Below are positions 1 to 43,277 of a stretch of 64,000 nucleotides of DNA, in pieces. The stretch comes from an uncultured bacterium (GTDB lineage Bacteria; Bacillota_I; Bacilli_A; RF39; UBA660). The stretch spans positions 8,976 through 72,975 of the forward strand of contig CAOJEC010000002.1 in NCBI GenBank assembly GCA_948433885.1, read 5' to 3'. A model generated the notes under the pieces. That model saw only the letters and a list, made by a program, of their open reading frames with translations, did no database searches and was not told the origin of the DNA. The stretch's first letter is position 1. Each line of letters begins with the position of its first letter. The translations under genes were made by a program, and so were the position numbers.

Positions 1-3000
1 TGTATTCAAGTACTTACCGATTCCTGATGTTGTATTGAATACACCAACTGTACCAAATTCAATATTTACATAACCATCGTTTGTTGTCAAATAGTTATCG
101 GCTATCAATTTAGTTCCCTCATTTGAAGTAGAAACTATACGCCATGCTTTTCCACCAAAGTTAACATATTCACCAGTTGATCTATTAGTTAAGTTAGATC
201 CTACAGATGCTTTATTTCCTTCGTCGATGACGTATGGATCAGCAGCTGTTCCTCTACCCTTTAAGATATCTACTGGATTGATGTTGATTACTGGTCTCAT
301 AGCATATGGTTCATTGACATAGTATCCTCTTTCTTTTCTACCTGTTTCTTCTACAACCCAAGCAGTATCTTCGCTTGTAGGAGTCATAGTAAAGTAACGT
401 TCACCATTGTTCAAGAATCCATTTGCGCCACCTAAGATGTTGTATTCGTCGATTGTCAACAATCCTACTTTAGATTTTACTACGCTATTAGCACTACATG
501 TGTATCTGACGTTAGTTAATGAAGTCATTTTCTCACTACAGAATTCACCAGTAGAAACTATTGTAGAAGCGTTGTTTAGTGATGGATAGAATACATTATT
601 CAACCATCTTTCGGCATGACTTCCAGTAAAGACACTAGAGTTATCATCGAATGAGAATCCCGTTGCAGATTCTTCAGTGACAATTCTCAAAGTTCCATCT
701 GCATTGACTTTTACAACTCTCCATAAGTGTCCACTGTACCAAATATAGTTATCAGTAGAATTTGTAGCATAGCATTGTTCGCCATCAGTACAACTGTTTT
801 CTTCTTTAAACATATCGGTAGCAGTAGTACTTACTACTTTTACAGTTCTCTTCTCAGTAGTTTCATTACCAGAAGCATCCGTAGCAGTGTAAGTTATTTC
901 ATAAGTTCCAACTTCGTAAACATTTACATTGTGTGATGTTTTAACTTCCAATTCACCGTCGAATGTATCTTCAGCAGTTGCGCCATATGTATCGGCGAAA
1001 GAGCTTCCGTACTTGACTTCTATTGCACTTCCATTACCACCTAAAGTGATTGTTGGTGCAGTAGTATCTTTAACTTTTACAGTTACTGTAATGACTCTCG
1101 TATTACCGACATCATCAGTTGCTTTATAAGTCAAAGTATAATTATCACCTAATGTAGCTAAATCTACAACTCCGTTGATATCGACTGAGACAGATGCACC
1201 GTCACGGTCAGTTACATTGTATTCGAAGTTTTCGAATTTGTTTACTTTGTCTGCTTCGAGAGTAACCTCGAAGTCTTCTTTGTGTTTAACCCCTTTATTA
1301 TCTACTATCTCCAATTCAGGAGCAGTTTTATCGATTGTGAATGTAACAGATGTGCTATTACCTGCTTCGTCGATGACGATCAAAGTATGATTTCCTTCTT
1401 TGCTTATGACATCACCATTTTGGACTGTCTTACCATCGAGTTTAGCAATAGGTTTTGTAGTAGCATCGTTGAATTCGATTGTGACATCGTTTCCATAGAT
1501 CATACCATCCTTGATTGAAGTAATCTCAGGTGGAAGTGTATCTACATAGAAAGTAACACTTGTAGTTTTTCCATTTTCGCCAGTAACTACTAATTCGTAT
1601 CTACCGTCGGAAACTTCAGTTCCATTTGTAAATTCTACGCCATTTAATGTAGCAGTACCTTTATCGAATGAAACAGTTACTTTTTCACCATAAACTTCTC
1701 CATCTTCCACTCCTGAAACTACAGGTGAAGCATTGTCTATTGTGAATGTTACAGTTGTCTCATTTCCTGCCTTATCTGTAGCAGTAATAGTATAAGTACC
1801 ATCTTCAGTGAATGTAGCATTTCCTTCTACTTCGTTACCATCTTTATCTACGATTGTAGATATATTTGCATCTTCTACTGAGATTGTTACATCTCCCGTA
1901 TAGATACCATTGTTGTTGATAGATGTTCCACTTATTGCGATATTTGGATCAGTCTTATCGATTGTGAATGTCTTAGTGACTTCACGTCCTACTATATCAG
2001 TAGCTGTTATTACATATACACCATCTTCAGTGAATGTTGTACCATTAGTGATTTCTTCACCATTATTTTTGATAGAAACTATGTTGTGATCTTCTACATT
2101 TACAGTTACATCTACACTGTAATGACTTTCATCATCGAATCCGTTGATCACTGGAGCTTTAGTATCGACTATGAAGCTCAATTCTGTCTTCTTACCAGCA
2201 TCGCTCGTTACGACAACTGTGTATTTACCATCACTTAGGACTGTACCGCTTTCGACTGTTTCACCATTTACTGTTGCTGTTCCCTTATCAAATTCTAGAG
2301 TAACATCATCAGTATAGACTTTTCCATCTTCCACTCCTGTGACTACAGGTGGTAATGAATCTATAGTGAATGTTTTAGTTACGCTGTGTCCAGCAGCATC
2401 GACTGCTGTTATTGAGTAAGTTCCATCTTCAGTGAATGTTGCTCCACTTTCGATAGTCGTACCGTCTGCTAATGTGATAGATACTAAGTTGGCATCACTT
2501 ACTGTTACTGTTATAGCTTCAGAATAAGTTTTTCCATCTTCGAATCCTTCGATTACTGGATCTTTAGTATCGATTGTGAATGTTACAGATACAGTGTGTC
2601 CTGCTTTATCTGTAGCAGTGATTGTATGAGTTCCATCTTCATCTATAGTTGAACCATTAGTGATTTCAACTTCACCATTCATTATAGTATCGATATTGTC
2701 GTCAGTAACATTTACTGTTACACCTTCAGTATAGATACCATTTACTTGTTCACCATCTAGTTCGATTACAGGTGCTTCTGTATCGATATCAAACTCAACA
2801 GTAGTACTGTTACCTACACGGTCAGTTACTACTAGAGTATGATGTCCAGAAACATTGTAACTTTCGCCTAATGTGAACGCTTCTCCATCCATTGTTGCTG
2901 TCATAGAATTCATATCTGTAGCATTGATAGTAACTTCTCCATCATAGATCATACCATCTTCTACGCCAGATACAACTGGAGCAGTATTGTCGATTCCAAC

Positions 3001-6000
3001 ATATATTACTTTTGTAGTATTACCTGCTGCATCGACTGCATATATTCTATGAACTCCGTCTGAACTAATTTCAGAACCAGACGCTACTTCAGCGTTATTG
3101 TCATATATGATACCTTCATCGACTGTGACGATTACAGAACCTTTGATATACATACCAGAAGTTACTTCTTCACCAGTATTTTTGTCTATAATAGTCATGT
3201 TTGGAGCATCTTTATCGATGTTCTCAACGTTGTAAGTTACTACTGTCTCATTTCCTACTGCGTCGGCAATTGTAACGCTTACTTCAGTATTTTCTTCAAC
3301 AGTGAATACGTATTTACCATCGACTAATTCGTAATTTACATTTGAATTTTTGATGGTTACATTTTCTTCATTAGTAACATTCAATGTCAATTTCACATCT
3401 TGATTTGTCATTTCAGTAGTGTTAGGTTCGAGTGTTGCTACAGGAGCATCTTTATCGATTCCTGAAACATTATATTCGATTCCTTCTACTGTATTACCAG
3501 CCTCGTCTTTGATATTCAAAGTACCGGCAATATTTTTAGAAACTGTAACTCTATAAGTATATTTTTCGTTTAGAGAAAGTTCAACTTCACCCTCGACGAA
3601 ATTCATCCAATTCATATTGTTAGAGTCTACTATTTCTACCAACTTCTTAGTTGAAGTCAATTTGATTGTTACATCTTCTTTAGTAGGAGTATCACCATCG
3701 ATGATATTCTCGTTACCTGTAGTTCCTGTAACATATGTTATTGTAGCTTCTGGAAGAACTTTATCGATGTTGCTTACAGCATATTCGACGATTGTCTCGT
3801 TTCCTACAAGATCTACTAGAGTCAATGTTCCTGTTACATTTTCGGAAACAGTCACACTGTATACAAATGAGCCATTTTCAGTTTGTACTGAATCGATCCA
3901 ATTCATTCCGTTCGTATCTCTTATAGCAGATAGTTCTTTATCAGAAGTCAATGTAATTGTAACATCTTTATTAGTCACTACTTTATCAGCATCTGTATAA
4001 GATACAGTTGCCTTAGCAGGGGTTTTATCGATATTCGTTACATTGTATGATGCACTTCCTTTGCGTCCAGCTAAGTCTTCGAATTCTACTACGACTTCTC
4101 TATTTGCAGATACAGTCAACGTATATTCGTTTTTACCTTCGACTTTAGTCCATACATCAGTTGTACTTGTAATGATGATTTCTTCACTTGGTGTAAGTGT
4201 AAGAATTACATCTTGGTTAGTACCGTCGGACGTATTTGCAACTATATTGGCAGTTGGATCTACGAGGTCGATATTTTCAACTTCGATAGAAGCACTTCCA
4301 TAGTTACCTGCTAAGTCAGTATATTCTACTGTTACGACCTTATTAGCAGTTACTTCGCTTGTATATTCGTTTTTGCCTTCAACTTTAGTCCATCCTTCAC
4401 TAGTAATGATGAGCTCTTCATTTGAAGTCAATGTAATTACGACTGGTCCTACAGTTGGGCTTGTATTTGATGGTATCATGTTTGTATCTGCAGGAGTTAC
4501 GTCGACTACTATATCTGAATCTGTAGGTTCGATAGCAGTTCCTACTAATTGATTTGGCCCTACTGGAGTGATCGTATAAGATACGATTCCTTCTTTAGAA
4601 CTATCAGTAATAGTGATAGATGCTTCGTACTTACCAGTTTCAGCATTCTTTGTAACTATAGCGGTTTGACCATTTATAGTAGCAGTTGTTACAAGTGGTT
4701 CATCTTCAGTAGCAGTAACGTTAAGTTCTACATTGCTTTCGAATTCCAACTTGATTACATCTCCAGCTTTAGCATATCCAACATTTCCTGTAGTAGTAAT
4801 AACTGGATTAACTACGACTGGGATCAATACCAATTCACTTAGATCGATTTGTTCAAGAGCAGCATTGTACTCGCTTCTCAAACCATCTCTATCGATGACA
4901 GCTTGAACTGCATTCAATTTCTCTTGTAATGCTGTCCATGATTCGTTAGTATAGTCTGCTTCTTCATAGTTGTCTTCCAAATCTTTCAATATTGCTTCAT
5001 ATGCACTCGCATCGATCGGCAATCTTGTTGCCAATATTGCTTCTTCGATCTCTTCGAGTCTTGCTTCGTATTCACTCTTCAAGATTCCTTCGCTTACTGC
5101 TGTCGATAACTCTGTTAACGCTTCTTGGTATGCATCGTATCCTGAATAGTCTTCCTCTTTATACTTGTCTCTGTAGTCTTCTGTTGTGTCTACTACTGGT
5201 TCTTTCTCCAAGTCTTTGACTAGTCTTTCGAGTGCTTTTGAGTAGTAATTGACATCACTTTGTAATCTCAATGTTCCTTCTACCTCTGATTCACTCTTCA
5301 ATGTCATGAGCTCTGCCCATGTTTCTTTTGTATAGTCACTTTCTACCAACTTAGCGATCTTACCGATTACTGTGTTGTAATCGTACATATCTTTCTCTGC
5401 TGGTATCAATTCCATATTTTCGACTGTCTCGATTTGTTTATCCATGTACTCTTGTGTGATATTTGGATTCAATTTGATTGTTCCATCTACCATCATTGTG
5501 AGTGCATCGAAATACATCTTCTTTGTTTGCCATGACTTGTCAGTGTAATCGTATTTGTTTTCGTTTACGCTGAAGTAGAATCCACCTGTACTGTTAGTCT
5601 CGAGCATTTCCATATATGCAGCGATCTTATTGTACTTATCTACATTGATAACTCTTATTGTAAGTGTCTCACTAGCAGTGTTGCCTGCTGAGTCAGTAGC
5701 AGTATAAGTTATAGTATGTTCTCCAGCTTCGTTGATGTCGACTTCCGTCTTATCTGCTGTTACTGTCAATTCTCCATCGACTGAGCTTGTAGCCGTTACT
5801 TTAGGATATGTAATGTCCATTCCCTTGATCGTTACGATTACATTTCCACCTTCGATTGTGATTGTTGGAGCAGTCTTATAGATTTTGAATGTAACTTCGC
5901 TAGATTCATTACCAGCTTTATCAACTGCTTTGATAGTGTAAACACCATCTTCGCTGAATGTCTTAGACGTTCCGAATGCAGCATCCAATACTCCATTGAC

Positions 6001-9000
6001 GTATACTTTGTCGGCATTTGCATCGTTAACAGTGACAGTAACTGCGCCATTGTAGATACCTTCCTCTACTTTAGTATTTTCATCAGTCAATGTAATAGTT
6101 GGAGCTACATCATCGAAGTTTGTAATTTCGATAGAAGCAGAACCTGCATTACCTGCTAAGTCTTTATAGTTTACAACTATTTCACCATTAGCGCTTACAG
6201 TTCTTTGATATTGAACTGAAGGATCAGATTCGGTAGCATCTTTGATCAATGTCCATTCACTGTCGCTCAAATCTTTGATAGCTTCGTCAACAGTCAATGT
6301 CAATGTGATTTCTTCGTTAGTTATATCAGTTTTATTAGCAGTGATAGTACCTTTTGGAGCTTCTTTATCTATACCAGTGACATCGATAACGAATGTACCC
6401 TTATTTCCAGCTTCATCTTGGAAGATGAATGAGAAATTTCCATTATTAGATCTATTAGCAGTCAATAATGAATATTCATTTCCTTCTTCATCAACTTTGT
6501 TTTCAACATCGACTCGTGTGCCAGTGTTGAGAGAAATTACTTTCTCAGAAGTCTTAATAGTTATAGTCTTATGACTATTTGTAGGTCCTTCTGGTGTGAT
6601 TTCATAAAGCTCAGCAGTTGGTTTTTCTTTATCTATTCCTTCTACTTCATAGACGAATGATCCACTATTTCCAGCTTCATCTTCGAACTTAAACATATAT
6701 TTACCATTATTACTTCTTTTAGCAGCAAGTAATGTATACTTAGCACCAGTTTCCTCGTCTACTTTAACTTCGACAGTTGGAATAGTACCTGTATTTGTAG
6801 TCTTTACAACTTTATCTACTCTAATAGTAATTTCTTTGAATGAATTAGTAGGACCTTCTGGGTTGACACCGACGAATGTTGCAGTAGGTGCAGTCTTGTC
6901 GATATTTTCTACCGTATAAGAAACTGTAGAAGTATTGCCAACGTGATCTACTAAAGTCAATGTATTAGATACGTTTTCAGTTGCTGTTGCAGTATAGATG
7001 AACTTGCCGTTTTCTTCTACCGCGCTAGACCATTCTAATTTATCATCTTCGAATGTTACTGCCTCATCAGAAGTTAAGGTAATCACAACATCTTGGTTAG
7101 TCAAATTCGTATTTGAATATGTGACATCTGCCGTTGCAGGAATCTTATCGATGTTCGCCACTGTGTAAGAAACACTTCCTATATGTCCAGCTAAGTCTTT
7201 GAACTCTACAGTGACAGTTCTATTATCGCTGACTACCAACGTATATTCGCTGCCTGTTACTTTAGTCCATTCATCAGTTGTACTTGTGATGACGATTTCT
7301 TCACTAGCATTTAAAGTCAATGTGATATCTTGGTTAGTACTTTCAGTTGTATCAGCTTCGATAGTAGCAGTAGGTACTTCAGTATCGATATTGCTTACAG
7401 TGTAAGTCTTGCTTCCTGCGTTACCAGCCAAGTCTGTATATTCGACAGTGACAGTTCTATTAGAAGTTACAACCAAAGTAAATGTTTTCTTATCTGCACT
7501 TGCAGTCCATTCATCAGTTGTACTTGTGATGATAAGTGGTTCATCAGAAGTTAATGTTAGAGTAACTGGATTCATTGTTTGACCACCTGTTGATGGTATC
7601 AACGTAGTCTTAGCAGGAGTTTTATCGATATTCTCGACTTCGTATGATGCACTTCCTGTATGTCCAGCTAAGTCTTTATAAGTGATCTCATAAATTCCAT
7701 TTTCAGAAACATCTAATGTATATCTGATAGTCTTATCTGTTGGATCTTCGTTTGTTACACGAGTCCAATTTCCACCATCGATTATGATGATTTCTTCATC
7801 GACTTCGAAAGTCAATGTAATATCTTCATTTGTAGGATCTTCATTACTTGAAGTAATCGTTCCATTAGGAGCTTTAGTATCGATCGTAAATGTTACAGTC
7901 TCTTCGTTACCTACTTGGTCGATTACTTTTATAGTATAAGTTCCATCTTCAGTAAAGTCTTGTGGACTTACAAATGAAGTATCCAATACACCATTTACAT
8001 AAACTTCTTTGACGTTGCTTTCAGCAACAGTAACAGTTACTGTGCTCGTATAAAGATTGTTTTGTCCATTGACTTTGTCTCCAGAAATTTCGATTGTAGG
8101 TTCAGTGATATCGACAATAATATCGGATTCGACACTTACTTCTGCACCTTCGAGACCATCAGGTCCGACTGGTTTGATCGTATAAGTGACTTTACCTTCT
8201 TTTGTATTTTCATCGACAATTACAACTGCACGATACAAATCGCCTTCTTTACTTACAGTTACTTGTTCTCCGTTTATAATTACTTCAGTACCTGTCAAAT
8301 CTAATTCAGTATTTGAATTAAATTCCAAAGTCAATTTATTTCCAATTGTAGCATATCCATTAGCACCATCAGTTACAAATGTGACATTAGTAGCTTTAGG
8401 AATTGCAACTAGATCATTCAAATCGATTTGATCAAATACAACTTTGAATTCACTTCTAAGAGCACCATTTGCGATCAACTCTTTTGCTTCATCGATCAAT
8501 TCTTTGATAAAAGTGTAAGATTCACTTGTGTAGTCACTTTCTACCAATTGTTCGAATTCAGCTACTATTTTATCGAATTCAGTTGTATCGATTGCCAATG
8601 CTTCTAGGTTGTCCAAACTCAAATTAGCCAACTCTTTTTCGTATTCGCTTATCAATCCATTGTTATCGATAATTGCTTGTACTTTTGCTATTTGATTTTC
8701 GATAGCTGTCCATGATTCTGCAGTATAGTCAGTTTCGATCAACTTACCAAATTCAATAACGATATTATCAAATTCAGTAGTATCCAAAGCATTTGCTACC
8801 AAATCATTTAGATCGATTTGTTCAAGAGCAGCATTGTACTCGCTTCTCAAACCATCTCTATCGATGACAGCTTGAACTGCATTCAATTTCTCTTGTAATG
8901 CTGTCCATGATTCGTTAGTATAGTCTGCTTCTTCATAGTTGTCTTCCAAATCTTTCAATATTGCTTCATATGCACTCGCATCGATCGGCAATCTTGTTGC

Positions 9001-12000
9001 CAATATTGCTTCTTCGATCTCTTCGAGTCTTGCTTCGTATTCACTCTTCAAGATTCCTTCGCTTACTGCTGTCGATAACTCTGTTAACGCTTCTTGGTAT
9101 GCATCGTATCCTGAATAGTCTTCCTCTTTATACTTGTCTCTGTAGTCTTCTGTTGTGTCTACTACTGGTTCTTTCTCCAAGTCTTTGACTAGTCTTTCGA
9201 GTGCTTTTGAGTAGTAATTGACATCACTTTGTAATCTCAATGTTCCTTCTACCTCTGATTCACTCTTCAATGTCATGAGCTCTGCCCATGTTTCTTTTGT
9301 ATAGTCACTTTCTACCAACTTAGCGATCTTACCGATTACTGTGTTGTAATCGTACATATCTTTCTCTGCTGGTATCAATTCCATATTTTCGACTGTCTCG
9401 ATTTGTTTATCCATGTACTCTTGTGTGATATTTGGATTCAATTTGATTGTTCCATCTACCATCATTGTGAGTGCATCGAAATACATCTTCTTTGTTTGCC
9501 ATGACTTGTCAGTGTAATCGTATTTGTTTTCGTTTACGCTGAAGTAGAATCCACCTGTACTGTTAGTCTCGAGCATTTCCATATATGCAGCGATCTTATT
9601 GTACTTATCTACATTGATAACTCTTATTGTAAGTGTCTCACTAGCAGTGTTGCCTGCTGAGTCAGTAGCAGTATAAGTTATAGTATGTTCTCCAGCTTCG
9701 TTGATGTCGACTTCCGTCTTATCTGCTGTTACTGTCAATTCTCCATCTTCTTTATCCGTTGCAGAAACCTCAGGATATGTGATATCCATTCCTTTGATCG
9801 TTACGATTACATTTCCACCTTCGATTGTAATTGTAGGAACGTTGTGATCGATATTCTCTACAGAATAAGTAACAGTAGTAATATTACCGACGTGATCTAC
9901 TAAAGTCAATGTATTAGATACATTTTCAGTTGCTGTTGCAGTATAGATGAACTTACCGTTTTCTTCTACTGCGTCAGACCATTCTAGTTTATCATCTTCG
10001 AATGTTACAGCCTTATCAGACGTTATAGTTATTTCGACAGATCCTGTAGTGCTTTCAGTCGTATTATAAGAAACTGTAGCGTTTGCAGGAGTCTTGTCGA
10101 TATTTTCTACTGAATAGCTTACTTCAGTTTCATTTCCTACATGATCGACTAGAGTCAATGTATTAGATACATTTTCAGTTGCTGTTGCAGTATATGTATA
10201 CGTACCATTTTCATTCTTAGTTTCAGTCCAATTGAGTAACTCATCTTCGAAACTTACTTTCTTAGAAGTGTTGATCGTAATTGTTACATCTTCGTTTGTA
10301 TCTTCAGTTGTTGAATAAGTCACACCCGCTGTAGCAGAAGTCTTATCTATGTTATTTACTGAATACACGACATTTTCAGTAACATTTCCGACTTCGTCAG
10401 TCAATGTCAATGTATTAGATACATTTTCAGTTGCTGTTGCAGTATATGTATACGTACCATCTTCATTACGTGTCTCAGTCCAGTTGAGTAACTCATCTTC
10501 GAAACTTACTTTTTCAGAAGTATTGATCATGATCGTTACATCTTCATTAGTATCTTCAGTTGTAGAATAAGTTACGTCTACAGTAGCAGGAATATTGTCG
10601 ATATTAGATACTTCATATTTGACGCTTCCTTTATTTCCAGCAAGGTCAGTATAAGTAAGCTCTATTTCTCCATCCGTATTTTCTGATAAAGTCTTAGTAT
10701 AACGAACTGTTCTATCTTCCAAAGTAGCATCTTTGACCAAAGTCCAATCAGACTCACTCATATCTTTGATAGGTTCGCTTACTTCTAAAGTCAACGTTAC
10801 AGAACCCTTAGTAGGAGCAGTTACATCAGCAGTTATAGTACCAACTGGTGCTTCTTTGTCGATATTCTCGACTGTATATCTAGCAGTACCTACGTTACCA
10901 GCTGCATCTGTAAACTTGAATGTTATAGTACCATTGATAGATTTTTTGAATGTCCATGTTTGGTTGTCTATTTGTTCTAGCGCTTTGTTCTCAGTCAACA
11001 TTGTTACTGGTTCACTAGTCTTGATTGTCAAGATTACTGGTTGATTTGTTGGTGCTGTCGTACTTGGTGTGATCTCTGCTGTAGGAGCAGTCTTGTCTAT
11101 CGTGAATGTTACAGCAGTTGAGTTATTTGCTCCATCAGTTACAGTCAACGTATAAATTCCATCTTCTGTAATAGCTGCACCTTTCTTGTAGTCTTCGATT
11201 ACGACTTCAGTAATTGCTCCGTCTTCATCGACTACCTTCTTAGTCAATACACCAGTACCCTCATTGTATGAAGGTCTTACATTTTTATTATAAACACCTT
11301 TATCTTCGACACCTGTTATTTCTGGTGCTTTAGTGTCGATCGTAAATGTATAAGTAACCTTGTTGTCAGCTTCATCAGTTACAACTAATGTATACTTACC
11401 ATCTTCGCTTACAGTATTACCACTTGTGAAGAACTCATCATTGAGCATCGCGCCAACATTGTGATCATCACTATACATGATAGTTACTGGAGCATTGTAA
11501 ATTCCTTTGTTTTCGACACCTGTTACAATAGGTTTAGTTTTATCGATATTGTCGACAGTATAACGAATAGAATTCGTGTTGCCAGCCAAATCTTTAAATT
11601 TGAATGTTATTGTTCCGTTGATAGATTTCTTGAACGTATAAACTGTATCAGAAACTTTTGTCAATGCAGAACTTTCAGTCAACATTTCGATTGGTTCACT
11701 CGCTTCGAATGTCAATATTACAGCGCCATTTGTATATTTATCCTCTGTAGGATCTTGAGTTATTATTGCTGTAGGAGCAGTTTTATCGATAGTAAATGTC
11801 ACTACTGTGTCATTTCCGACCCCATCAGTTACAGTCAATGTATAAATTCCATCTTCTGTAATAGATGCTCCTTTGACATAATCGGCAACTACAGTATCGA
11901 CGATAGAACCGTCTTCATCGACTGTCTTCTTAGTCAATACAGCAGTGCCCTCGTTGTATGAAGGTCTTACATTTTTATTGTAAAGTCCTTGGTCTACGAC

Positions 12001-15000
12001 GCCTGTTATGATAGGATCGATTGTATCGATAGTGAATCTATAAGTTACTGTATTACCAGCTGCATCTGTTACTATCAATACGTGTTTACCATCGGCAATT
12101 TCTCCACCTAAGAATATCTCTCCGTTTAGAGTTGCTGTTACACCAGGTTTGTCATCTTCAAAAGTAACATTCTTGTTTTCGTTATATTCGCCTTTATTAT
12201 CTACACCTGAAATTGTAGGTTTAACTTTGTCGATATTCTCGACTGTATATTTTGCAGTACCTACGTTACCAGCTGCATCCGTAAACTTGAATGTTATAGT
12301 ACCATTGATAGACTTTTTGAATGTCCATGTTTGGTCGTCTATTTGTTCTAGCGCTTTGTTCTCAGTCAACATTGTTACTGGTTCACTAGTCTTGATTGTC
12401 AAGATTACTGCTTGATTTGTTGGTGTTGTAGTACTTGGTGTGATTTCTGCTTCTGGTTTTGTTCTATCTATAGTGAAGTTGATTGTAGTAAAGTTTCCAG
12501 CTTCATCGGTTACGATCAAAACGTAATCTCCACTTTCAGTTACATCAGTTCCACTTACAAAAACGTTACCATTTAATGTTGCAGTTCCTTCAGTGAATGT
12601 AGGAGTGACGATAGTGTTGAATAAATATTTGTTTTCTGCTTCGACAAATTTATCTTCATCAAATCCACCCACTTCTGGTGCACCTTTATCGATATTGTTT
12701 ACTACATAAGTAATATTTTTTGTGTTGCCTAATTTATCAGATACGACGATCGTATTAGATATATTCTCTATAGCAGTAGCAGTGTAAGAATATGTTCCAT
12801 CTGCTAATTTGAGAACAGTCCAATCAAGTTCATCAGTAAATGTCAACTCTTCACGAGCTTTGATAGTTATGATGACGTCTTGATTTGTAATTTCAGTAGT
12901 AGAATATGTAGGAGCATCTACATCGACAATTTTATCGATATTTTCTACTTTATATGAAATTTCAGTTTTATTATTATTCGCATCAGCAATGACAATTGCA
13001 CCTGAGATATTTTCAGTTATAGTAGTCGCATATTGATACTTACCATCTTCAGTAAGTTCATCTAGTTTATTCCATACATTTCCATTATTGTCAGTAATTG
13101 TGACTTCTTCATCTACTGTCAAAGTCAAAGTTACATCTTTATTTGTATCTTCTTCTGTATTAGCTGTTATGCTTCCAACAGGAGCGGTCTTATCGATCGT
13201 TACTGAATATGGAAGTGAAACTTCATTTTCGGCTTTATCGATAAGTTTGATAGATCCAGTTACTGAATCATTTACAGTATAAACGTATTGATATTTACCA
13301 TCTTCAGTCATTTCATTGAGTTTCAACCACATATATCCATTTGAATCTTCGAATGTGATCTCTTCATCGACTGTCAATATCATCTTTATAGAATCGACTA
13401 ATCTATCAGTTGTCGCATCATCGATATTTTCATATGATATAGACCCCTTAGGATTTGCTGAATCGATTTCGACTGTTACAGTAAGTTCATTTTCGCCTTT
13501 ATCGACTAAGTACAATACGTACTCACCATCAGCATTCAAAACTACTGATCCATCTTTCTTTCCATCGCTTATTTCCTGAATACTTGCATTATTCAATTTA
13601 GCTGCGACACTGCTGTATTTGTCTTCGAAAGTAATAGTAACTTCTTTGTTAAAATACAATTTCTTAGTTATATCGTCAATGACGATTTCTTCACCGTCGA
13701 CGATGAACTTAACATCAGGAGTAGACTTATCTATAGTCGGATAATAGACGATAGCATTACCTGCTTTATCAGTCAATTTTAAAGTATGTTCTCCTTCTTC
13801 AGAAAGCGTAACTTTTCCATTTTCGATTTCGACACCATCGAGTTCAGCTTTGACTTCTCCACTTTCATCTTCAAAAGTTATAAGAATATCTTCGCCATAT
13901 ACTTGACTTCCAACTGAACTTGTAGGATTCTTTTGATCAATAACAAATTTTATAGTAGTGCTTCTACCAATAGAATCGGTTACAACTAACGTATATTCAT
14001 TATGTTTACCATCGATTGCATATATCGTTTTTCCATTCGCGATTTCATCAGCAGATAACTCTTCTCCGTTCAAAGTTGCTGTCAACTCTAAAGGATTTTC
14101 TACGATATTGATCGTAATATCATGATTGAAATAATGTGTTGAAGTTTCATCGTCGATCAATTTACCATCGATGTTAACTTCAGGTTTATCTTTATATATA
14201 GTAAATTCGATTCTTGTAGTAAGCCCAACTTCATCAGTGACTTCTAAAACGTGATTTCCACTAGCGGTAATTTTAGTATCAGTAAATTCTTTACCATCTA
14301 ACATAACAGTGGTCTTAGTCAAATCACTAATTTCGATGTTGACTTCGTTTTCGTATTTATCTTCATACTTATCGCTACCATTTAATAATACACTAGGAGC
14401 AGTCTTATCGATTGTAACAGTTCTAGTTGTTACAAGACCAGCCTTATCAGTAGCTATGAGAGTATAAAGACCCTCTTCATCTAAAGTTACTTCAGAATTG
14501 GCATACACTAATCCATTCTTCTTGACTGTAACAGATTTTAGATTTGTATCGATTGCTTTGACAACAAAATCATCCTTTGTAATCAAATCTGAATCTAAAC
14601 CTTCAAATTCAGGAGCAGTCTTGTCGATTGTGAAGATAGTCGTTCCACTATTTCCAGCATCGTCAGTCAAAACTAAAGTATGTTCACCTTCGTCTGATAC
14701 GACATGACCACTTGAGATTTCCAAACCGTCCAATGTAGCAGTTACAGTACCACCTTTATCATCGAATGTTATAGTTCTATTTTCTGAGTAGAATTTACCA
14801 TTCACGACACCTTCCACAGTAGGAACTTGTCTATTTATTGTGAAGTTGAAAGTTACAACATGTCCTGCACCATCAGTTACAGTTATGACATATTTTCCTT
14901 CTTTAGTAAATACTTCTCCGTCCTTCAAATCTCTATATAAAGTATTCGACTTAGCAACAACATTCGAATATTTATCTTTGAAATGAATGATCACATCTTT

Positions 15001-16137
15001 ATTTATAGATTGTCCATCTACAATCTTAGTTCCATCTTCAGTTTCAGCCCATACTTCAGGATCTGATTGATCGATTGAGAAATTGACTGATACTTCCCCA
15101 ACGGAGTTTCTAACTGTCAAAGTATATTTACCTTCTTCAGTAATTGCACCTCCACTATTGATAGGTCTCTCACTCGCTTCTTCACCTTCTACAGCATGTT
15201 TATACAATGTTGCTTCATCACCATAATAAGAAACTCTATAAGGTAACTCAGTGTATACACCACCTTCGGTAATTCTATTGATAACTGGTGGATTTGTTGT
15301 AGTAGTTTTTCCCAATGAAAATTTTGCTACTGTTTTATTTCCAGCTTCATCTGTAGCGACAACTTCATAAGAACCCGTTTCATTGATCGCATTAGAAGTC
15401 ATCTTATCACCATTGACAAGAACATCTTTCAAATTGTCATCTTGAACATTGAGTGTTACTCCTGTACCATAGTTAGAAACTACATCTTTACCATTGACAA
15501 GAATAACAGGAGCTTCTTTATCGATGTTTGTTGCACTTACATTTACAGTTGCATTCTTTTCTCCATCGAGTGAAACAACTTCGAAAGAATCTTCTCCATT
15601 TTCAGTATATATTTTTGTAAGCGTCTTTTTATCATTAGAAAGAACCCAATCTTCTTCATCTACTTTTTGAACCTGTTCACTAAAACGAACTTGAACTTCA
15701 ACGTTTCCATTCGTGTATCTAGTCGAACTTGGTAATACTTTATAAGTCAATATAGAAGTATTGCTATCCAAATTTGAATCATCAGATTGATTTTCATTCT
15801 CATCAACTTTGACAGAATCTGTCTCACATGTGAGACTTGGCTCATACTTATATGTACCATCTTCATTCGTAATAGTAACATATGAGTTATTTATACATTC
15901 GTCTTTCATACTAGAAACTAAACTTCCAGATTCTTGAAGACGAGAAGCACTCGTAACCAATTTAGAATCGATCGCCAAATTGTTGTTCTCGACATACTTC
16001 TTAGCAGATTCTACTAAGACGTCACTATAATCCCTTTCTTTGTATAATAAATTTGTGACCGTATAGGCACCAGCAACCACAGTTGTAACTGCAGTAACCC
16101 CCAAAACTACATTTTTAACTTTATTATTTGTTGCCAT
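1..16137 (-). CDS. Giant cell-surface repeat protein, at least 5,379 aa, with the 3' end beyond the left edge. It has an N-terminal signal/anchor, dozens of ~85-95 aa Ig-like modules ending in IDK(T/D/E)AP, DUF5011/HYR-like modules, two FIVAR-like helical blocks and DUF6273-like distal domains.
   Basis: ATG at 16135-16137 is preceded by GGAGG (rc of 16144-16148) with a 6-nt spacer. I translated the minus frame by hand over 1-9750 and 13900-16137 and spot-checked 10321, 11461, 12361 and 13081; no stop appeared and the frame is the same at both ends (16137 = 3 x 5379). The ORF track lists no bounded minus-strand ORF here except one out-of-frame 70-aa ORF, as expected for a single ORF leaving the window. 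N-terminus: MATNNKVKNVVLGVTAVTTVVAGAYTV (hydrophobic anchor). Recurrent motifs: TxTDxAGN...FTIDKTAP. Confidence 0.9.
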   Translation of the reverse strand, partial: MATNNKVKNVVLGVTAVTTVVAGAYTVTNLLYKERDYSDVLVESAKKYVENNNLAIDSKLVTSASRLQESGSLVSSMKDECINNSYVTITNEDGTYKYEPSLTCETDSVKVDENENQSDDSNLDSNTSILTYKVLPSSTRYTNGNVEVQVRFSEQVQKVDEEDWVLSNDKKTLTKIYTENGEDSFEVVSLDGEKNATVNVSATNIDKEAPVILVNGKDVVSNYGTGVTLNVQDDNLKDVLVNGDKMTSNAINETGSYEVVATDEAGNKTVAKFSLGKTTTTNPPVINRITEGGVYTELPYRVSYYGDEATLYKHAVEGEEASERPINSGGAITEEGKYTLTVRNSVGEVSVNFSIDQSDPEVWAETEDGTKIVDGQSINKDVIIHFKDKYSNVVAKSNTLYRDLKDGEVFTKEGKYVITVTDGAGHVVTFNFTINRQVPTVEGVVNGKFYSENRTITFDDKGGTVTATLDGLEISSGHVVSDEGEHTLVLTDDAGNSGTTIFTIDKTAPEFEGLDSDLITKDDFVVKAIDTNLKSVTVKKNGLVYANSEVTLDEEGLYTLIATDKAGLVTTRTVTIDKTAPSVLLNGSDKYEDKYENEVNIEISDLTKTTVMLDGKEFTDTKITASGNHVLEVTDEVGLTTRIEFTIYKDKPEVNIDGKLIDDETSTHYFNHDITINIVENPLELTATLNGEELSADEIANGKTIYAIDGKHNEYTLVVTDSIGRSTTIKFVIDQKNPTSSVGSQVYGEDILITFEDESGEVKAELDGVEIENGKVTLSEEGEHTLKLTDKAGNAIVYYPTIDKSTPDVKFIVDGEEIVIDDITKKLYFNKEVTITFEDKYSSVAAKLNNASIQEISDGKKDGSVVLNADGEYVLYLVDKGENELTVTVEIDSANPKGSISYENIDDATTDRLVDSIKMILTVDEEITFEDSNGYMWLKLNEMTEDGKYQYVYTVNDSVTGSIKLIDKAENEVSLPYSVTIDKTAPVGSITANTEEDTNKDVTLTLTVDEEVTITDNNGNVWNKLDELTEDGKYQYATTITENISGAIVIADANNNKTEISYKVENIDKIVDVDAPTYSTTEITNQDVIITIKAREELTFTDELDWTVLKLADGTYSYTATAIENISNTIVVSDKLGNTKNITYVVNNIDKGAPEVGGFDEDKFVEAENKYLFNTIVTPTFTEGTATLNGNVFVSGTDVTESGDYVLIVTDEAGNFTTINFTIDRTKPEAEITPSTTTPTNQAVILTIKTSEPVTMLTENKALEQIDDQTWTFKKSINGTITFKFTDAAGNVGTAKYTVENIDKVKPTISGVDNKGEYNENKNVTFEDDKPGVTATLNGEIFLGGEIADGKHVLIVTDAAGNTVTYRFTIDTIDPIITGVVDQGLYNKNVRPSYNEGTAVLTKKTVDEDGSIVDTVVADYVKGASITEDGIYTLTVTDGVGNDTVVTFTIDKTAPTAIITQDPTEDKYTNGAVILTFEASEPIEMLTESSALTKVSDTVYTFKKSINGTITFKFKDLAGNTNSIRYTVDNIDKTKPIVTGVENKGIYNAPVTIMYSDDHNVGAMLNDEFFTSGNTVSEDGKYTLVVTDEADNKVTYTFTIDTKAPEITGVEDKGVYNKNVRPSYNEGTGVLTKKVVDEDGAITEVVIEDYKKGAAITEDGIYTLTVTDGANNSTAVTFTIDKTAPTAEITPSTTAPTNQPVILTIKTSEPVTMLTENKALEQIDNQTWTFKKSINGTITFKFTDAAGNVGTARYTVENIDKEAPVGTITADVTAPTKGSVTLTLEVSEPIKDMSESDWTLVKDATLEDRTVRYTKTLSENTDGEIELTYTDLAGNKGSVKYEVSNIDNIPATVDVTYSTTEDTNEDVTIMINTSEKVSFEDELLNWTETRNEDGTYTYTATATENVSNTLTLTDEVGNVTENVVYSVNNIDKTSATAGVTYSTTEDTNEDVTITINTSKKVSFEDELLNWTETKNENGTYTYTATATENVSNTLTLVDHVGNETEVSYSVENIDKTPANATVSYNTTESTTGSVEITITSDKAVTFEDDKLEWSDAVEENGKFIYTATATENVSNTLTLVDHVGNITTVTYSVENIDHNVPTITIEGGNVIVTIKGMDITYPEVSATDKEDGELTVTADKTEVDINEAGEHTITYTATDSAGNTASETLTIRVINVDKYNKIAAYMEMLETNSTGGFYFSVNENKYDYTDKSWQTKKMYFDALTMMVDGTIKLNPNITQEYMDKQIETVENMELIPAEKDMYDYNTVIGKIAKLVESDYTKETWAELMTLKSESEVEGTLRLQSDVNYYSKALERLVKDLEKEPVVDTTEDYRDKYKEEDYSGYDAYQEALTELSTAVSEGILKSEYEARLEEIEEAILATRLPIDASAYEAILKDLEDNYEEADYTNESWTALQEKLNAVQAVIDRDGLRSEYNAALEQIDLNDLVANALDTTEFDNIVIEFGKLIETDYTAESWTAIENQIAKVQAIIDNNGLISEYEKELANLSLDNLEALAIDTTEFDKIVAEFEQLVESDYTSESYTFIKELIDEAKELIANGALRSEFKVVFDQIDLNDLVAIPKATNVTFVTDGANGYATIGNKLTLEFNSNTELDLTGTEVIINGEQVTVSKEGDLYRAVVIVDENTKEGKVTYTIKPVGPDGLEGAEVSVESDIIVDITEPTIEISGDKVNGQNNLYTSTVTVTVAESNVKEVYVNGVLDTSFVSPQDFTEDGTYTIKVIDQVGNEETVTFTIDTKAPNGTITSSNEDPTNEDITLTFEVDEEIIIIDGGNWTRVTNEDPTDKTIRYTLDVSENGIYEITYKDLAGHTGSASYEVENIDKTPAKTTLIPSTGGQTMNPVTLTLTSDEPLIITSTTDEWTASADKKTFTLVVTSNRTVTVEYTDLAGNAGSKTYTVSNIDTEVPTATIEADTTESTNQDITLTLNASEEIVITSTTDEWTKVTGSEYTLVVSDNRTVTVEFKDLAGHIGSVSYTVANIDKIPATADVTYSNTNLTNQDVVITLTSDEAVTFEDDKLEWSSAVEENGKFIYTATATENVSNTLTLVDHVGNTSTVSYTVENIDKTAPTATFVGVNPEGPTNSFKEITIRVDKVVKTTNTGTIPTVEVKVDEETGAKYTLLAAKRSNNGKYMFKFEDEAGNSGSFVYEVEGIDKEKPTAELYEITPEGPTNSHKTITIKTSEKVISLNTGTRVDVENKVDEEGNEYSLLTANRSNNGNFSFIFQDEAGNKGTFVIDVTGIDKEAPKGTITANKTDITNEEITLTLTVDEAIKDLSDSEWTLIKDATESDPSVQYQRTVSANGEIVVNYKDLAGNAGSASIEITNFDDVAPTITLTDENTKVEEGIYNGAVTVTVNDANADKVYVNGVLDAAFGTSKTFSEDGVYTIKAVDKAGNESSEVTFKIYKTAPTITIEGGNVIVTIKGMDITYPKVTATSSVDGELTVTADKTEVDINEAGEHTITYTATDSAGNTASETLTIRVINVDKYNKIAAYMEMLETNSTGGFYFSVNENKYDYTDKSWQTKKMYFDALTMMVDGTIKLNPNITQEYMDKQIETVENMELIPAEKDMYDYNTVIGKIAKLVESDYTKETWAELMTLKSESEVEGTLRLQSDVNYYSKALERLVKDLEKEPVVDTTEDYRDKYKEEDYSGYDAYQEALTELSTAVSEGILKSEYEARLEEIEEAILATRLPIDASAYEAILKDLEDNYEEADYTNESWTALQEKLNAVQAVIDRDGLRSEYNAALEQIDLSELVLIPVVVNPVITTTGNVGYAKAGDVIKLEFESNVELNVTATEDEPLVTTATINGQTAIVTKNAETGKYEASITITDSSKEGIVSYTITPVGPNQLVGTAIEPTDSDIVVDVTPADTNMIPSNTSPTVGPVVITLTSNEELIITSEGWTKVEGKNEYTSEVTANKVVTVEYTDLAGNYGSASIEVENIDLVDPTANIVANTSDGTNQDVILTLTPSEEIIITSTTDVWTKVEGKNEYTLTVSANREVVVEFEDLAGRKGSASYNVTNIDKTPAKATVSYTDADKVVTNKDVTITLTSDKELSAIRDTNGMNWIDSVQTENGSFVYSVTVSENVTGTLTLVDLVGNETIVEYAVSNIDKVLPEATITYVTGTTGNENIIDGDTPTKEDVTIKLTSTKKLVEIVDSNNMNWMNFVEGEVELSLNEKYTYRVTVSKNIAGTLNIKDEAGNTVEGIEYNVSGIDKDAPVATLEPNTTEMTNQDVKLTLNVTNEENVTIKNSNVNYELVDGKYVFTVEENTEVSVTIADAVGNETVVTYNVENIDKDAPNMTIIDKNTGEEVTSGMYIKGSVIVTVDEGIIYDNNAEVASGSEISSDGVHRIYAVDAAGNTTKVIYVGIDNTAPVVSGVEDGMIYDGEVTINATDMNSMTATMDGEAFTLGESYNVSGHHTLVVTDRVGNSTTVEFDIDTEAPVIELDGEQVNGIYTEGVTVNVTDDNIDTIMNGEVEITNGSTIDEDGTHTITATDKAGHTVSVTFTIDTKDPVIEGFEDGKTYSEAITVTVSDANLVSITLADGTTIESGATFTEDGTYSITAVDAAGHSVTKTFTIDSLPPVVTGVEDGKVYTDDVTLEFDKGTATVNGETVESGTVLSDGKYTVVVTSDAGKKTELSFIVDTKAPVINGFDDESHYSVDVTVNVEDHNIVSIKNNGEEITNGTTFTEDGVYVITATDIVGREVTKTFTIDKTDPNIAISGTSINNNGIYTGDVTISVEDANISTIVDKDGNEVEGNATFTEDGTYTITATDKAGNETTVTFTIDNASPVVSGVEDGEVYGEKVTVSFDKGTATLNGVEFTNGTEVSDGRYELVVTGENGKTTSVTFYVDTLPPEITSIKDGMIYGNDVTIEFNDATTKPIAKLDGKTVQNGDVISKEGNHTLIVIDEAGNSTSVTFTIDKTAPELEIVDNKGVKHKEDFEVTLEADKVNKFENFEYNVTDRDGASVSVDINGVVDLATLGDNYTLTYKATDDVGNTRVITVTVKVKDTTAPTITLGGNGSAIEVKYGSSFADTYGATAEDTFDGELEVKTSHNVNVYEVGTYEITYTATDASGNETTEKRTVKVVSTTATDMFKEENSCTDGEQCYATNSTDNYIWYSGHLWRVVKVNADGTLRIVTEESATGFSFDDNSSVFTGSHAERWLNNVFYPSLNNASTIVSTGEFCSEKMTSLTNVRYTCSANSVVKSKVGLLTIDEYNILGGANGFLNNGERYFTMTPTSEDTAWVVEETGRKERGYYVNEPYAMRPVININPVDILKGRGTAADPYVIDEGNKASVGSNLTNRSTGEYVNFGGKAWRIVSTSNEGTKLIADNYLTTNDGYVNIEFGTVGVFNTTSGIGKYLNT
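4839..5778 (-). repeat. 940-bp perfect direct repeat, copy B, inside the giant ORF (FIVAR-like helical block plus part of a DUF5011-like module)
   Basis: I compared it line by line with 8808-9747 and found it identical. Mismatches occur at 4838/8807 and 5779/9748. Confidence 0.9.
8808..9747 (-). repeat. 940-bp perfect direct repeat, copy A
   Basis: The offset to copy B is 3,969 bp (3 x 1,323), so the two copies are in frame. Confidence 0.9.
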
Positions 16138-16167
16138 AATAAACCTCCTAAATATTTCGCAAATATT

Positions 16168-16196
16168 ATTCTATCATTTACGTAACATTTTGTCAA
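16168..16196 (-). promoter_or_regulatory. Sigma-A-type promoter of the giant surface-protein gene
   Basis: On the minus strand, TTGACA (rc of 16191-16196), an exact 17-nt spacer, then TAGAAT (rc of 16168-16173), about 30 nt upstream of the ATG. Confidence 0.55.
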
Positions 16197-16562
16197 AAAT
16201 TATCACTATATAGCATATGCCATATAATCCCTTTTTTTTCTTATGTAAGTAATTGATAGTCCCTTTTTAATTCCTTTCTTTTTTCATCATTTCTATTAAT
16301 CATGTTTTTTGTTCGTTCCTAAAATCTTGTTTTCCTTAAAGATTCAGAAACATTACCTTCATGGTGCACCGAATTTCGACTCTATAATCGAAGTGGTGAA
16401 TCTAAATCTAATGGATAATTATAAATATAGAATAAGTTTTTGGCTTTTATAGTAGATACTATATAAGTCAAAGTTCCCCTTTTTCTCATAAAAGATATAA
16501 TCCCCCTTAAATTGATTACGAATATTCTACTGCTTTTTTTTAAAAAGTCAAGAAAAAAATCA

Positions 16563-16591: not shown

Positions 16592-18373
16592 TTATAATTT
16601 CATTATTTTTGCAGATTTTTCAGTTCTTTTTGTACTTAATAAGAAACTCTTAACCTGCTTAAACATATTGATTTTACATGAAAGAGCATCAGCTTTGCTT
16701 TCAGATTCAAGAGTAGCTTCTGGTTCATCATCAAATGGTTTAACACTACCACTTCCAATTCCTGGGTTATGACCTTTATCGCCTACAATTCCATCTCTAT
16801 CAGCGTCTTTTGGTGCCTCTGGTTCGATCGAAGCTGAAACCGTTGGATCAGGTATGACAAGCGAAACAGAAGCCGATGGATCAGGATCGAGTGAAACCGA
16901 CACATCAGGTTCAGGAGAAAAAGTGCTTTCTTCTTTTTCTTCCTCTTCATCATCAAATGGTTTAACATTTCCATTACCGATACCCTGATTTCCATTTCCA
17001 TCATTTATTTCTCCTCTATCTGGATCATCTGTTGGTTCAGATGAAGGAGGTATAGACTCCGATGGTTTCTCATCATCAAAACCTGGTTTTGTACCTCCAT
17101 TACCAATACCTGGATTGCCGAGTACATCATCAATTTCTCCTCTATCTGGATCTTCTGAAGGTGATGGAGATGGTGATGGATCAACTGGTTGTGATGGATT
17201 CACCGAATCTGATGGTGATGGTGATGGATCTACTGGTTGTGATGGATTCACCGAATCTGATGGTGATGGTGATGGATCAACTGGTTGTGATGGATTCACC
17301 GAATCTGATGGAGATGGTGATGGATCAACTGGTTGTGATGGATTCACCGAATCTGTTGGTGATGGTGATGGATCTACTGGTTGTGATGGATTCACCGAAT
17401 CTGATGGTGATGGTGATGGATTTACTGGAAATGATATATCAGGTCCTTTTGATTCTATCTTCACATAGTCACATTCTACATGTGTACAATCGTAAACTAA
17501 ATTTCCATTCTCTTCAAATACGTTAAATACATGATTTTGTTCTTTAATATCTTTACATTTTCTACATTTCAGATATTCAAGATTTTCGTCATATCTTTCA
17601 AGTTTCCACTCACAATATCCTTCTTTAGACAATGTATATTTATATCCGCAATTAATACATTCATAATTCGTATAAATCTTATGAATATCCTTTTTTTGAC
17701 TTTGGTCATAAGTTATAAATTCTTCTATGACATGAGATCTATATTCCAAAGCACCACAAATAGTACACATGCGGGCTTCCATTTTATCATCATGGTATCC
17801 CCAATCACCATAAGTATGAATATGATCACTATTTATTGATTGACTTGGATCTGCTGATTGCTCAGGACGTGGTGTAACTACTATACCAGGAATATAAATA
17901 TCTTCTACTTTTTCACTCTCATCTGGAACAGGAGTTGAATCTATCTTATCATCACCAGCATTATCAGATGGTTTTACTGAAACGGTCGGCGTTGGAGTCG
18001 TCGTATCAGTAGGAGTAGCTGTAGAATCTAAATCATCAGAATGTCCAGGAGGGAGAGGTACGTCATTTGAATTGTTCCTGTTTGCCAAATGTAAACCTAC
18101 TCCCGCAACAGCAGAGCTCACAATCAAGGCAGCCGACAAGATAAATACTATCGGTTTCTTTTTCTTTTTCTTTTCTTCCTTTTCGTAAGCTTCGTTGAAC
18201 ATATTCAAAGTCTTTTCAACAGCTGCCATGTTATCGTCTAATGTAGGCGCATTCGCCGCCTTTTTTTCTTCTAATCTATGCATTTCTGCCACTCTCTTCG
18301 AGTTATTTAAAACTTTCTTTTGCTCTTTTTTTTGTTCTCTTTCAATTCGTTTTTGTTCCTTAGTTTTTGCCAT
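16592..18373 (-). CDS. Type-II membrane-anchored protein. It has a K/E-rich cytoplasmic N-terminus, one TM helix, an extracytoplasmic Cys-rich region with CxxC pairs, six 16-aa Pro/Ser repeats, and three DPDRGEI...GIGNG..KPFDDE repeats.
   Basis: ORF-track protein. TM segment: IVFILSAALIVSSAVAGVGLHLA. Cys pairs: CTICG, CINCG, CRKC, DCTHVEC. Repeat DSVNPSQPVDPSPSPS about 5.6 times. I recognise no family. Confidence 0.8.
   Translation of the reverse strand: MAKTKEQKRIEREQKKEQKKVLNNSKRVAEMHRLEEKKAANAPTLDDNMAAVEKTLNMFNEAYEKEEKKKKKKPIVFILSAALIVSSAVAGVGLHLANRNNSNDVPLPPGHSDDLDSTATPTDTTTPTPTVSVKPSDNAGDDKIDSTPVPDESEKVEDIYIPGIVVTPRPEQSADPSQSINSDHIHTYGDWGYHDDKMEARMCTICGALEYRSHVIEEFITYDQSQKKDIHKIYTNYECINCGYKYTLSKEGYCEWKLERYDENLEYLKCRKCKDIKEQNHVFNVFEENGNLVYDCTHVECDYVKIESKGPDISFPVNPSPSPSDSVNPSQPVDPSPSPTDSVNPSQPVDPSPSPSDSVNPSQPVDPSPSPSDSVNPSQPVDPSPSPSDSVNPSQPVDPSPSPSPSEDPDRGEIDDVLGNPGIGNGGTKPGFDDEKPSESIPPSSEPTDDPDRGEINDGNGNQGIGNGNVKPFDDEEEEKEESTFSPEPDVSVSLDPDPSASVSLVIPDPTVSASIEPEAPKDADRDGIVGDKGHNPGIGSGSVKPFDDEPEATLESESKADALSCKINMFKQVKSFLLSTKRTEKSAKIMKL
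17150..17430 (-). repeat. 48-bp tandem repeat, about 5.6 near-identical copies, encoding (DSVNPSQPVDPSPSPS)n
   Basis: The plus-strand unit ggtgatggatcaactggttgtgatggattcaccgaatctgatggtgat recurs head to tail. Boundaries are approximate. Confidence 0.85.
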
Positions 18374-32510: not shown

Positions 32511-32837
32511 TTACTTTATTCCTTTCAAAAGTTTGGTTAAAGATTCATTCATTTCCGAAAAATTCCCACCTAAACATCCGTTCCTTATCATTATAATATA
32601 ATCATTCTCTTTTTTAAATAAATTTTTATTATTGTCCATGATACTTCGTGTTTGTCTTTTTAATCTATTGCGAACAACAGCGTGCCCTAAACTATTTTTT
32701 ATTGCTATACCATAATGGATTTTTCCATCTTCACTTGGAACATAATAGATAACAAAATTTCTATCCTTATTATAATGACCATTTCTAATGATGTAATTGA
32801 AACGTCGTTTATCTTTGATCATTTCATATCTTTTCAC
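32511..32837 (-). CDS. rnpA: RNase P protein component
   Basis: Small basic protein between rpmH and yidC, with the RNR-like motif VVRNRLKRQ. Confidence 0.85.
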   Translation of the reverse strand: MKRYEMIKDKRRFNYIIRNGHYNKDRNFVIYYVPSEDGKIHYGIAIKNSLGHAVVRNRLKRQTRSIMDNNKNLFKKENDYIIMIRNGCLGGNFSEMNESLTKLLKGIK

Positions 32838-32876
32838 AAGGTACCTCCTAGAATAAAAACCACTACAAAGAGTGGT

Positions 32877-34731: not shown

Positions 34732-34750
34732 ACTGTTGATAAACATGAAG

Positions 34751-43272: not shown

Positions 43273-43277
43273 TTAAA

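Follow-up and report, generated by a model that had tools for sequence, protein, structure and literature searches.

Invasin and intimin join an N-terminal anchor to a rod of bacterial immunoglobulin-like (Ig-like) domains and a C-terminal, C-type-lectin-like receptor-binding tip. SiiE, with 5,559 residues and 53 bacterial Ig-like (BIg) domains, has a reported length of ~175 nm; it and the other giant Ig-repeat adhesins LapA, MpIBP and BapA are type I-secreted proteins of Gram-negative bacteria with RTX or C-terminal signals. Ebh and Embp, staphylococcal proteins of FIVAR or FIVAR-GA units, are giant surface proteins on the Gram-positive side. Periscope proteins (Rib/R28 and SasG-type) combine near-identical tandem DNA repeats with an LPXTG anchor (PMC9704523), and the tentaclins of phages carry a lectin-fold head on an Ig-like stalk (PMC10743442). 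Here we analyze a 64,000-nucleotide stretch (the window) of contig CAOJEC010000002.1, assembly GCA_948433885.1, from an uncultured bacterium of the RF39 lineage, and compare these systems with a giant gene that occupies positions 1-16137 on its minus strand. Our preferred explanation, to which as a whole we assign a probability of about 0.68, is that this is a real, independently transcribed gene that includes ~98% of a ~5,500-residue, ~600-kDa, very acidic protein, and that the protein is a cell-surface fiber with which a spore-forming gut Firmicute presents a lectin-like binding tip at a distance from the cell.

Translation of the minus-strand frame from the ATG at 16137 to position 1 yields 5,379 codons and zero stops, in agreement with the first-pass annotation, which had proposed an open reading frame (ORF) of at least this length; the stretch 9750-13900, which had only been spot-checked and was a possible site of a stop or frameshift, is open when translated in full. 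The local base composition predicts stops at 7.7% of codons, which puts the probability of so long an open run arising by chance at ~1e-187, and the remaining five frames across the same bases contain 149-621 stops each. The in-window product has a mass of 586 kDa and an isoelectric point of 4.2. As had been noticed, the gene is absent from the supplied ORF list, because that list omits ORFs running off the end of the source; ORF lists that drop end-truncated frames may in this way conceal the largest gene of a window. Two plus-strand ORFs that lie antisense within the giant gene, at 3617-4000 (127 residues) and 11461-11961 (166 residues), are most likely spurious. The coding sequence and its start signals are as follows.

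1-16137, minus strand: giant coding sequence, codons 1-5379; it exits the left window edge, with ~123-131 further codons expected.
16144-16149, minus strand: ribosome-binding site AGGAGG, 6 nt before the ATG at 16137.
16168-16196, minus strand: sigma-70-type promoter, TTGACA-17-TAGAAT with a TG extension, matching at 11 of 12 positions and identical in contig L004.

The near-consensus promoter stands exactly where one had been predicted, and the upstream gene is followed by a terminator-like hairpin at 16590-16562. Promoter, ribosome-binding site and upstream hairpin together indicate that the giant gene is its own transcription unit. An independent metagenome contig of the same species, L004 (ENA ERZ14864038; 832 nt, ~2x coverage), aligns to window positions 15540-16400 and is identical across the promoter and the first 161 codons; it carries the same promoter, ribosome-binding site and ATG, and a gene caller picked this same ATG on it. 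An Rfam scan upstream of the giant gene found no leader and no riboswitch. The gap at 16202-16489 (minus strand) holds a decayed remnant (MRKRGTLTYIV...DLDSPLRL, then a stop) of a gene for a small membrane protein of 191-199 residues, which is intact in the loci L006 and L007 between the Cys-rich protein gene and the giant gene (tblastn E 9e-8). The Cys-rich protein itself, encoded upstream at 16592-18373 (minus strand; 593 residues), matches no Pfam family; its N-terminus is rich in Lys, and it contains a single membrane segment, a Cys-rich region of CxxC type and tandem PSPSDSVNPSQPVD repeats. Because orthologous loci encode this Cys-rich region in the corresponding place ahead of the giant gene (35% identity), the protein may be a functional partner of the giant protein.

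From its N-terminus to the window edge, the product divides into the following parts, all on the minus strand.

16042-16110: hydrophobic segment, residues 10-32, with an AGA/Y site; the sole segment with a 19-residue Kyte-Doolittle mean >1.6.
15763-16041: conserved juxtamembrane head, residues 33-125, with Cys81, Cys104 and an acidic N/D/S-rich low-complexity linker; no Pfam match.
9850-15762: Ig-like array I, residues 126-2096, ~25 modules of 70-90 residues in two subtypes (module profile; Pfam including Big_13, BiPBP_C, HYR and InlK_D3; PDB profile matches to SiiE and R28).
9619-9849: PF16403 module, residues 2097-2173 (34.1 bits).
8404-9618: putative FIVAR-like helical block 1, residues 2174-2578, six ~65-residue units with DYTxESW (predicted helices, low-confidence model).
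5881-8403: Ig-like array II, residues 2579-3419 (module profile, per-module Pfam scan).
5650-5880: PF16403 module, residues 3420-3496, a duplicate of the module at 9619-9849 (Pfam, repeat comparison).
4828-5649: helical block 2, residues 3497-3770, near-identical to the first two thirds of block 1 (repeat comparison).
1327-4827: Ig-like array III, residues 3771-4937 (module profile, per-module Pfam scan).
826-1326: two PF16403 modules, residues 4938-5104, directly before the tip (71.3 bits in three stretches).
223-825: predicted DUF6273-type, C-type-lectin-like domain 1, residues 5105-5305, with conserved Cys pairs 5116/5122 and 5200/5214 (profile, AlphaFold model, structural matches).
1-222: linker and first ~55 residues of a second DUF6273-type domain, from about residue 5320, cut by the window edge; this domain is complete in L001-L003 and in the orthologues P0060 and P0068.

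The tip had been described as two copies of a WRVV...RPVINI domain within nucleotides 1-850, resembling DUF6273; one copy is complete (residues 5127-5305), and the second is present only as the ~55-residue fragment at the edge. The resemblance itself stands, at a score just under the curated Pfam cut-off: the match to PF19789 (DUF6273) spans positions 28-171 of the 172-position profile, 6 of the 11 aligned sister domains match it at E<0.01, and PF19789 is precomputed on the relatives P0001, P0005, P0006, P0008, P0012, P0032 and P0035 and faint on the orthologue P0068. An AlphaFold (AF2) model of the tip built from 20 sequences (predicted local distance difference test score, pLDDT, 88; predicted template modeling score, pTM, 0.86) shows the same fold, since its best Foldseek matches in BFVD are phage proteins named DUF6273 or receptor-binding (E 8e-8 to 5e-4, template modeling score 0.5-0.69). 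Structural matches in the PDB are all weak (E >= 0.1) and include the C-terminal domain of Legionella Lcl (8q4e), CD72, rhodocetin, Ly49C and Bd2740; C-type-lectin-like domains recur among them. Searched by sequence, as a single query and as a profile, the tip domain matched nothing in the PDB, and in PHROGs the window tip was unmatched while one relative gave only a weak family of unknown function. The profile and the model both support the prediction of a DUF6273-type domain, and its conserved Cys pairs fit an extracellular location. Relatives of the domain number 12,480 cluster representatives at E<=1e-3, for which a tandem pair is the usual arrangement. DUF6273 has been modeled as a C-type-lectin fold in phage receptor-binding proteins and targets of diversity-generating retroelements (DGRs) (PMC10743442, PMC11792537), and it sits at the N-terminus of the ThomasA IgA protease (PMC12402451). 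In two relatives, P0016 and P0030, the domain follows an N-terminus resembling that of type IV pilins (FTLIELL; PF07963 in P0030), and it therefore appears to be displayed on pilin-like proteins as well; another giant, P0039 (4,905 residues; 15 cluster members in ENA, JGI and Logan), has 11 DUF6273-type copies and no terminal pair.

Most of the remaining length is a rod of Ig-like modules. An iterated profile seeded from one module retrieved 52 related beta-rich modules of 55-76 residues, joined by IDK(T/E/D)AP-type linkers much as the first-pass annotation had read them; with three others next to the head and the helical blocks, the total comes to ~55. Scanned singly, modules match Big_13, PF16403, BiPBP_C, InlK_D3, HYR, Big_9, Big_12, Big_6, Cadherin_5, LapA, TIG and Invasin_D3, and in the PDB the module profile matches Ig-like domains from SiiE of Salmonella (2yn3, E 1e-4) and from the streptococcal protein R28 (8cxj, E 2e-4). 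The modules called DUF5011-like fall under PF16403 (Bact_surface_Ig-like, formerly DUF5011; gathering cut-off 27 bits), four of them above the cut-off: the family scores 34.1 bits in the first half of the protein and 71.3 bits in the second, and the best single module, one of the pair before the tip, has an E value of 6.6e-17. Scaled by analogy from the 53-domain SiiE, an extended rod would measure ~200 nm.

The rod is interrupted by two cassettes, each consisting of a PF16403 module, an all-helical block and an Ig-like module. The helical blocks had been taken to be FIVAR-like. Two all-helical blocks with DYTxESW motifs are present, and FIVAR (PF07554) is matched by 3 of the 9 helical units at E<1, more units than any other family; the best unit reaches 18.8 bits (E 0.0026), under the gathering cut-off of 29.2 bits. 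Among solved structures they best match Ruminococcus bromii Amy4, through a motif of similar kind (E 0.008), and a single-sequence AlphaFold (AF2) model of three units contains only helices at an unreliable pLDDT of 44. A FIVAR-like nature of these blocks is thus plausible at most.

Two full-length orthologues were identified: P0060 (5,691 residues; ENA metagenome ERZ27288399, contig k119_332762) and P0068 (6,112 residues; NCBI GCA_964472425.1, CAYYLF010000001.1). They share the N-terminus of the window protein, of which the first ~75 residues are almost invariant, are 55-59% identical to it at the C-terminus, and have the same PF16403 and helical cassettes and the same C-terminal tip of two PF16403 and two DUF6273 domains; they differ from it in the number of modules and of helical cassettes. 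Partial homologues occur in the Bacilli metagenome-assembled genomes (MAGs) MGBC102946 and ABMPRH_22_1, a genome scan found relatives at 42-58% identity only, and a metagenome scan found one at 28%. Both orthologues stop 123-124 residues past the motif at the window end (three remoter homologues, ~131), and the whole protein should therefore comprise ~5,500 residues and end with the second DUF6273 domain. Gene order is kept as parB, the class A penicillin-binding protein (PBP) gene PBP1, prfA, prmC, spoIIR, mntP, murA, the Cys-rich membrane protein gene and the giant gene. MurA is 83% identical to its orthologues and the giant protein 47-61%; exposed surface proteins usually diverge faster than their housekeeping neighbors. 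As judged from shared N-terminus, tip and position, the window protein is a member of an unnamed orthologous giant-protein family of a gut Bacilli lineage. The architecture, which the first-pass annotation could not name, already exists in databases in the form of unnamed full-length orthologues. Class A PBP, MurA and SpoIIR indicate that the organism has a wall and sporulates, and we take it to be a low-GC Firmicute with uncultured gut 'Bacilli' MAGs as relatives.

Near the middle of the window, the sign of the GC skew reverses at ~33-34 kb and the genes switch strand at ~33 kb (region ~32600-34800); parB (25649-26818) and rsmG/gidB (26869-27588) lie just left of the skew switch, and the ORF at 33295-34731 could be dnaA from its position and length alone. 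The window probably spans the replication origin, with the giant gene ~17 kb away.

With invasin and intimin, the giant protein shares the order of anchor, Ig-like rod and lectin-fold tip, and one module weakly matches Invasin_D3; it differs in having no beta-barrel/LysM anchor, a Gram-positive host, a ~6-10-fold greater length and a tandem DUF6273 tip in place of D5. Membership of that family was rejected because the N-terminal 360 residues match no LysM or beta-barrel (intimin/invasin-type) Pfam family. SiiE and the other giant Ig-repeat adhesins resemble it in size and in their Ig-like rod, to which the 2yn3 match belongs, and RTX adhesins likewise have a distal, C-terminal ligand-binding region, whereas here a Sec-type N-terminus and a lectin-like end take the place of their secretion signals. 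An RTX or type I-secreted adhesin was also rejected, since no RTX or type I secretion family was detected, the N-terminal signal is of Sec type, and SpoIIR and the class A PBP are of Gram-positive type. Ebh and Embp are similar as giant Gram-positive surface proteins whose helical ~65-residue units carry a FIVAR-like DYTxxSW motif; in the window protein, by contrast, helical units are a minority (two blocks, ~680 residues) with FIVAR scores below the cut-off, and there is no YSIRK signal and no C-terminal membrane anchor. Rib/R28 and the SasG-type periscope proteins share the Ig-like rod, the Gram-positive surface, the 8cxj match and length differences among orthologues. A periscope protein was nonetheless rejected: Tandem Repeats Finder (TRF) found no array, the modules are divergent (60-87% DNA identity), the single near-perfect repeat is non-tandem, and there is no LPXTG motif. 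Tentaclins and other phage DUF6273 proteins have the same tip fold family, and the tentaclins likewise combine a lectin-fold head with an Ig-like stalk; the giant protein differs from them in being cellular, chromosomal and ~10 times longer, with its domain C-terminal and in tandem, and no DGR was found in the examined loci.

We propose that the protein is exported by Sec and retained through its conserved N-terminal end, which would act either as an uncleaved signal-anchor or by way of the invariant ~50 residues after it. The Ig-like rod would keep the lectin-like tandem tip away from the cell, and the tip would bind a ligand, either glycan or protein, presented by host mucus, by epithelium or by other microbes. 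The single hydrophobic segment that the first-pass annotation had called a signal or anchor is nearly invariant among orthologues and could be either a signal peptide or a signal-anchor; the head behind it is the Cys-containing unique region that had been noted, with its two Cys residues. Scans with Pfam and NCBIfam detected no SLH, LysM, choline-binding or catalytic domain, NCBIfam giving only sub-threshold matches to an OmpL47-type barrel and Ca_tandemer. A sortase-anchored LPXTG protein was considered and rejected: neither the 5,379 in-window residues (the last ~125 of the protein lying outside view) nor the full-length P0060 and P0068 contain an LPxTG, SPxTG or NPxTG motif, and the two orthologues end in ...PYELDM and ...AYTLEY, with no C-terminal hydrophobic tail in either.

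Several points weigh against the surface-fiber explanation. The last ~125 residues and the stop codon lie outside the window, and the position of the stop is that predicted from the orthologues. The tip domain scores 20.5-21.9 bits for DUF6273 (E 1.7e-4 to 4.7e-4), below the gathering cut-off of 23.5 bits, and its C-type-lectin assignment is a prediction drawn from weak PDB matches and from published modeling of other DUF6273 proteins. An adhesin or host-interaction function is what the architecture alone suggests. At codon 162, contig L004 has TAA where the window has GAA, which may be an error in the reads or may mean that some cells carry an inactivated gene; L004 also has one further substitution (N to T) and diverges completely more than ~130 nt upstream of the ATG, and these differences could stem from a null allele, from another context upstream or, again, from read error. 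Finally, the N-terminal segment has a canonical AxA/Y site (AGA here, ASA in the orthologues), and cleavage there could leave the protein with no recognizable anchor.

This last point leads to the alternative that survives best, which we consider unlikely yet worth serious attention: that the segment is a cleaved Sec signal peptide and the mature fiber is released, or is loosely associated with the wall as a matrix, biofilm or aggregation scaffold. The segment has the n-h-c layout of a signal peptide, with Lys in the n-region, a 12-residue h-region and the AGA/Y site (ASA/Y in both orthologues), and no further anchor motif occurs in the window or in the full-length orthologues. However, the hydrophobic stretch runs beyond the AxA site to residue 32, and together with the next ~45 residues it is the most conserved part of the protein, which would be unusual for a disposable signal peptide.

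A second alternative concerns the length and repeat content of the gene, which would partly be an assembly artifact if the duplicated cassette had been collapsed or expanded. The repeat in question comprises two copies.

4839-5778: 940-nt duplication copy 1, non-tandem, 100% identical to its partner at 8808-9747.
8808-9747: 940-nt duplication copy 2, 100% identical to 4839-5778.

The copies lie 3,969 nt apart within a ~1,058-nt repeat at 97% identity, which would be hard for short reads, and at the protein level residues 2070-2476 and 3393-3799 are 85% identical; this is the only place where copy number could possibly be misassembled. Against an artifact, the frame is open through both copies and all four junctions, independently assembled orthologues are equally long or longer and have several such cassettes, and elsewhere the modules are 60-87% identical in DNA, with no tandem array found by TRF on the giant gene. 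We therefore regard even a partial assembly artifact as quite improbable and read the repeat as the product of recent duplication or else of gene conversion from one cassette to the other. Because module number varies among the orthologues and a 1-kb cassette has recently been duplicated or homogenized, length appears to change by intragenic recombination.

It is also conceivable, although we judge it very improbable, that the protein is a structural fiber of the envelope or spore, such as an S-layer-like sheath or a spore appendage, that has no specific ligand. A very large, acidic, repetitive and beta-rich protein would suit that role in a host that sporulates, with spoIIR 4 kb away; on the other hand, the promoter is of the vegetative sigma-70 type, the Pfam scan detected neither SLH nor S-layer domains, the conserved lectin-fold pair at the end is of the kind typically seen in binding tips, and the nearness of spoIIR simply reflects conserved gene order near the replication origin.

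DUF6273 has also been described as a DGR target whose variable region lies at the C-terminus of the domain (PMC10743442, PMC11792537). Since relatives of the tip domain contain a hypervariable stretch like those of known targets, we searched for a DGR. The metagenome fragments P0005-P0031 are near-identical but for ~35 residues directly before GLRAVIVVNSDV, where every other position is variable (N, S, Y, D, H, F, G or A), as would be expected if a DGR variable region formed the C-terminal end of a DUF6273-type domain. That the window tip is itself such a target, its C-terminal part hypermutated to vary ligand specificity, has in its favor this published role, the subgroup of relatives that differ in the N/S/Y/D/H-rich stretch just before GLRAVIVVN, and the usual variable-region position of domain 2 just outside the window, yet we hold it to be extremely improbable, since no reverse-transcriptase-like ORF (YxDD) was detected in the window or L001-L003, the called genes of L006 and L007 include no reverse-transcriptase Pfam family, the tip-coding DNA showed no template-like repeat in any of these six sequences (window, L001-L003, L006 and L007), and the genes that adjoin the giant gene in relatives have housekeeping roles (dnaE or an ABC transporter). 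Equally slight is the chance that a DGR encoded elsewhere in the genome diversifies the tip of this ~600-kDa chromosomal fiber, as a cellular mega-version of the phage tentaclin; if true, the result would be a cellular fiber with a hypervariable binding site.

Elsewhere in the window, a 1,581-residue ORF at 59181-63926 (plus strand) has NPCBM/NEW2 and F5/8 type C (discoidin) domains and is probably a secreted glycan-binding or glycoside-hydrolase-type protein. Across the whole window, Rfam detected only a T-box leader at 53196-53378 (plus strand, 109.6 bits), before a 510-residue ORF at 53414, and a small signal recognition particle (SRP) RNA at 43271-43360 (plus strand, 55.7 bits).

The giant gene is not a new kind of system; it holds no enzymatic or mobile-element surprise, and its unnamed orthologues are already public. 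It does belong to a giant-protein family conserved at one near-origin locus in a poorly known, largely uncultured gut Bacilli lineage, and giant surface fibers are often the main route by which gut bacteria attach to mucus, host cells and each other. The family joins an Ig-like rod to a tandem pair of DUF6273 domains, a domain type described elsewhere in receptor-binding proteins of phages, in DGR targets and in an IgA protease, and a cellular protein with such a tip offers a route to asking what DUF6273 binds.

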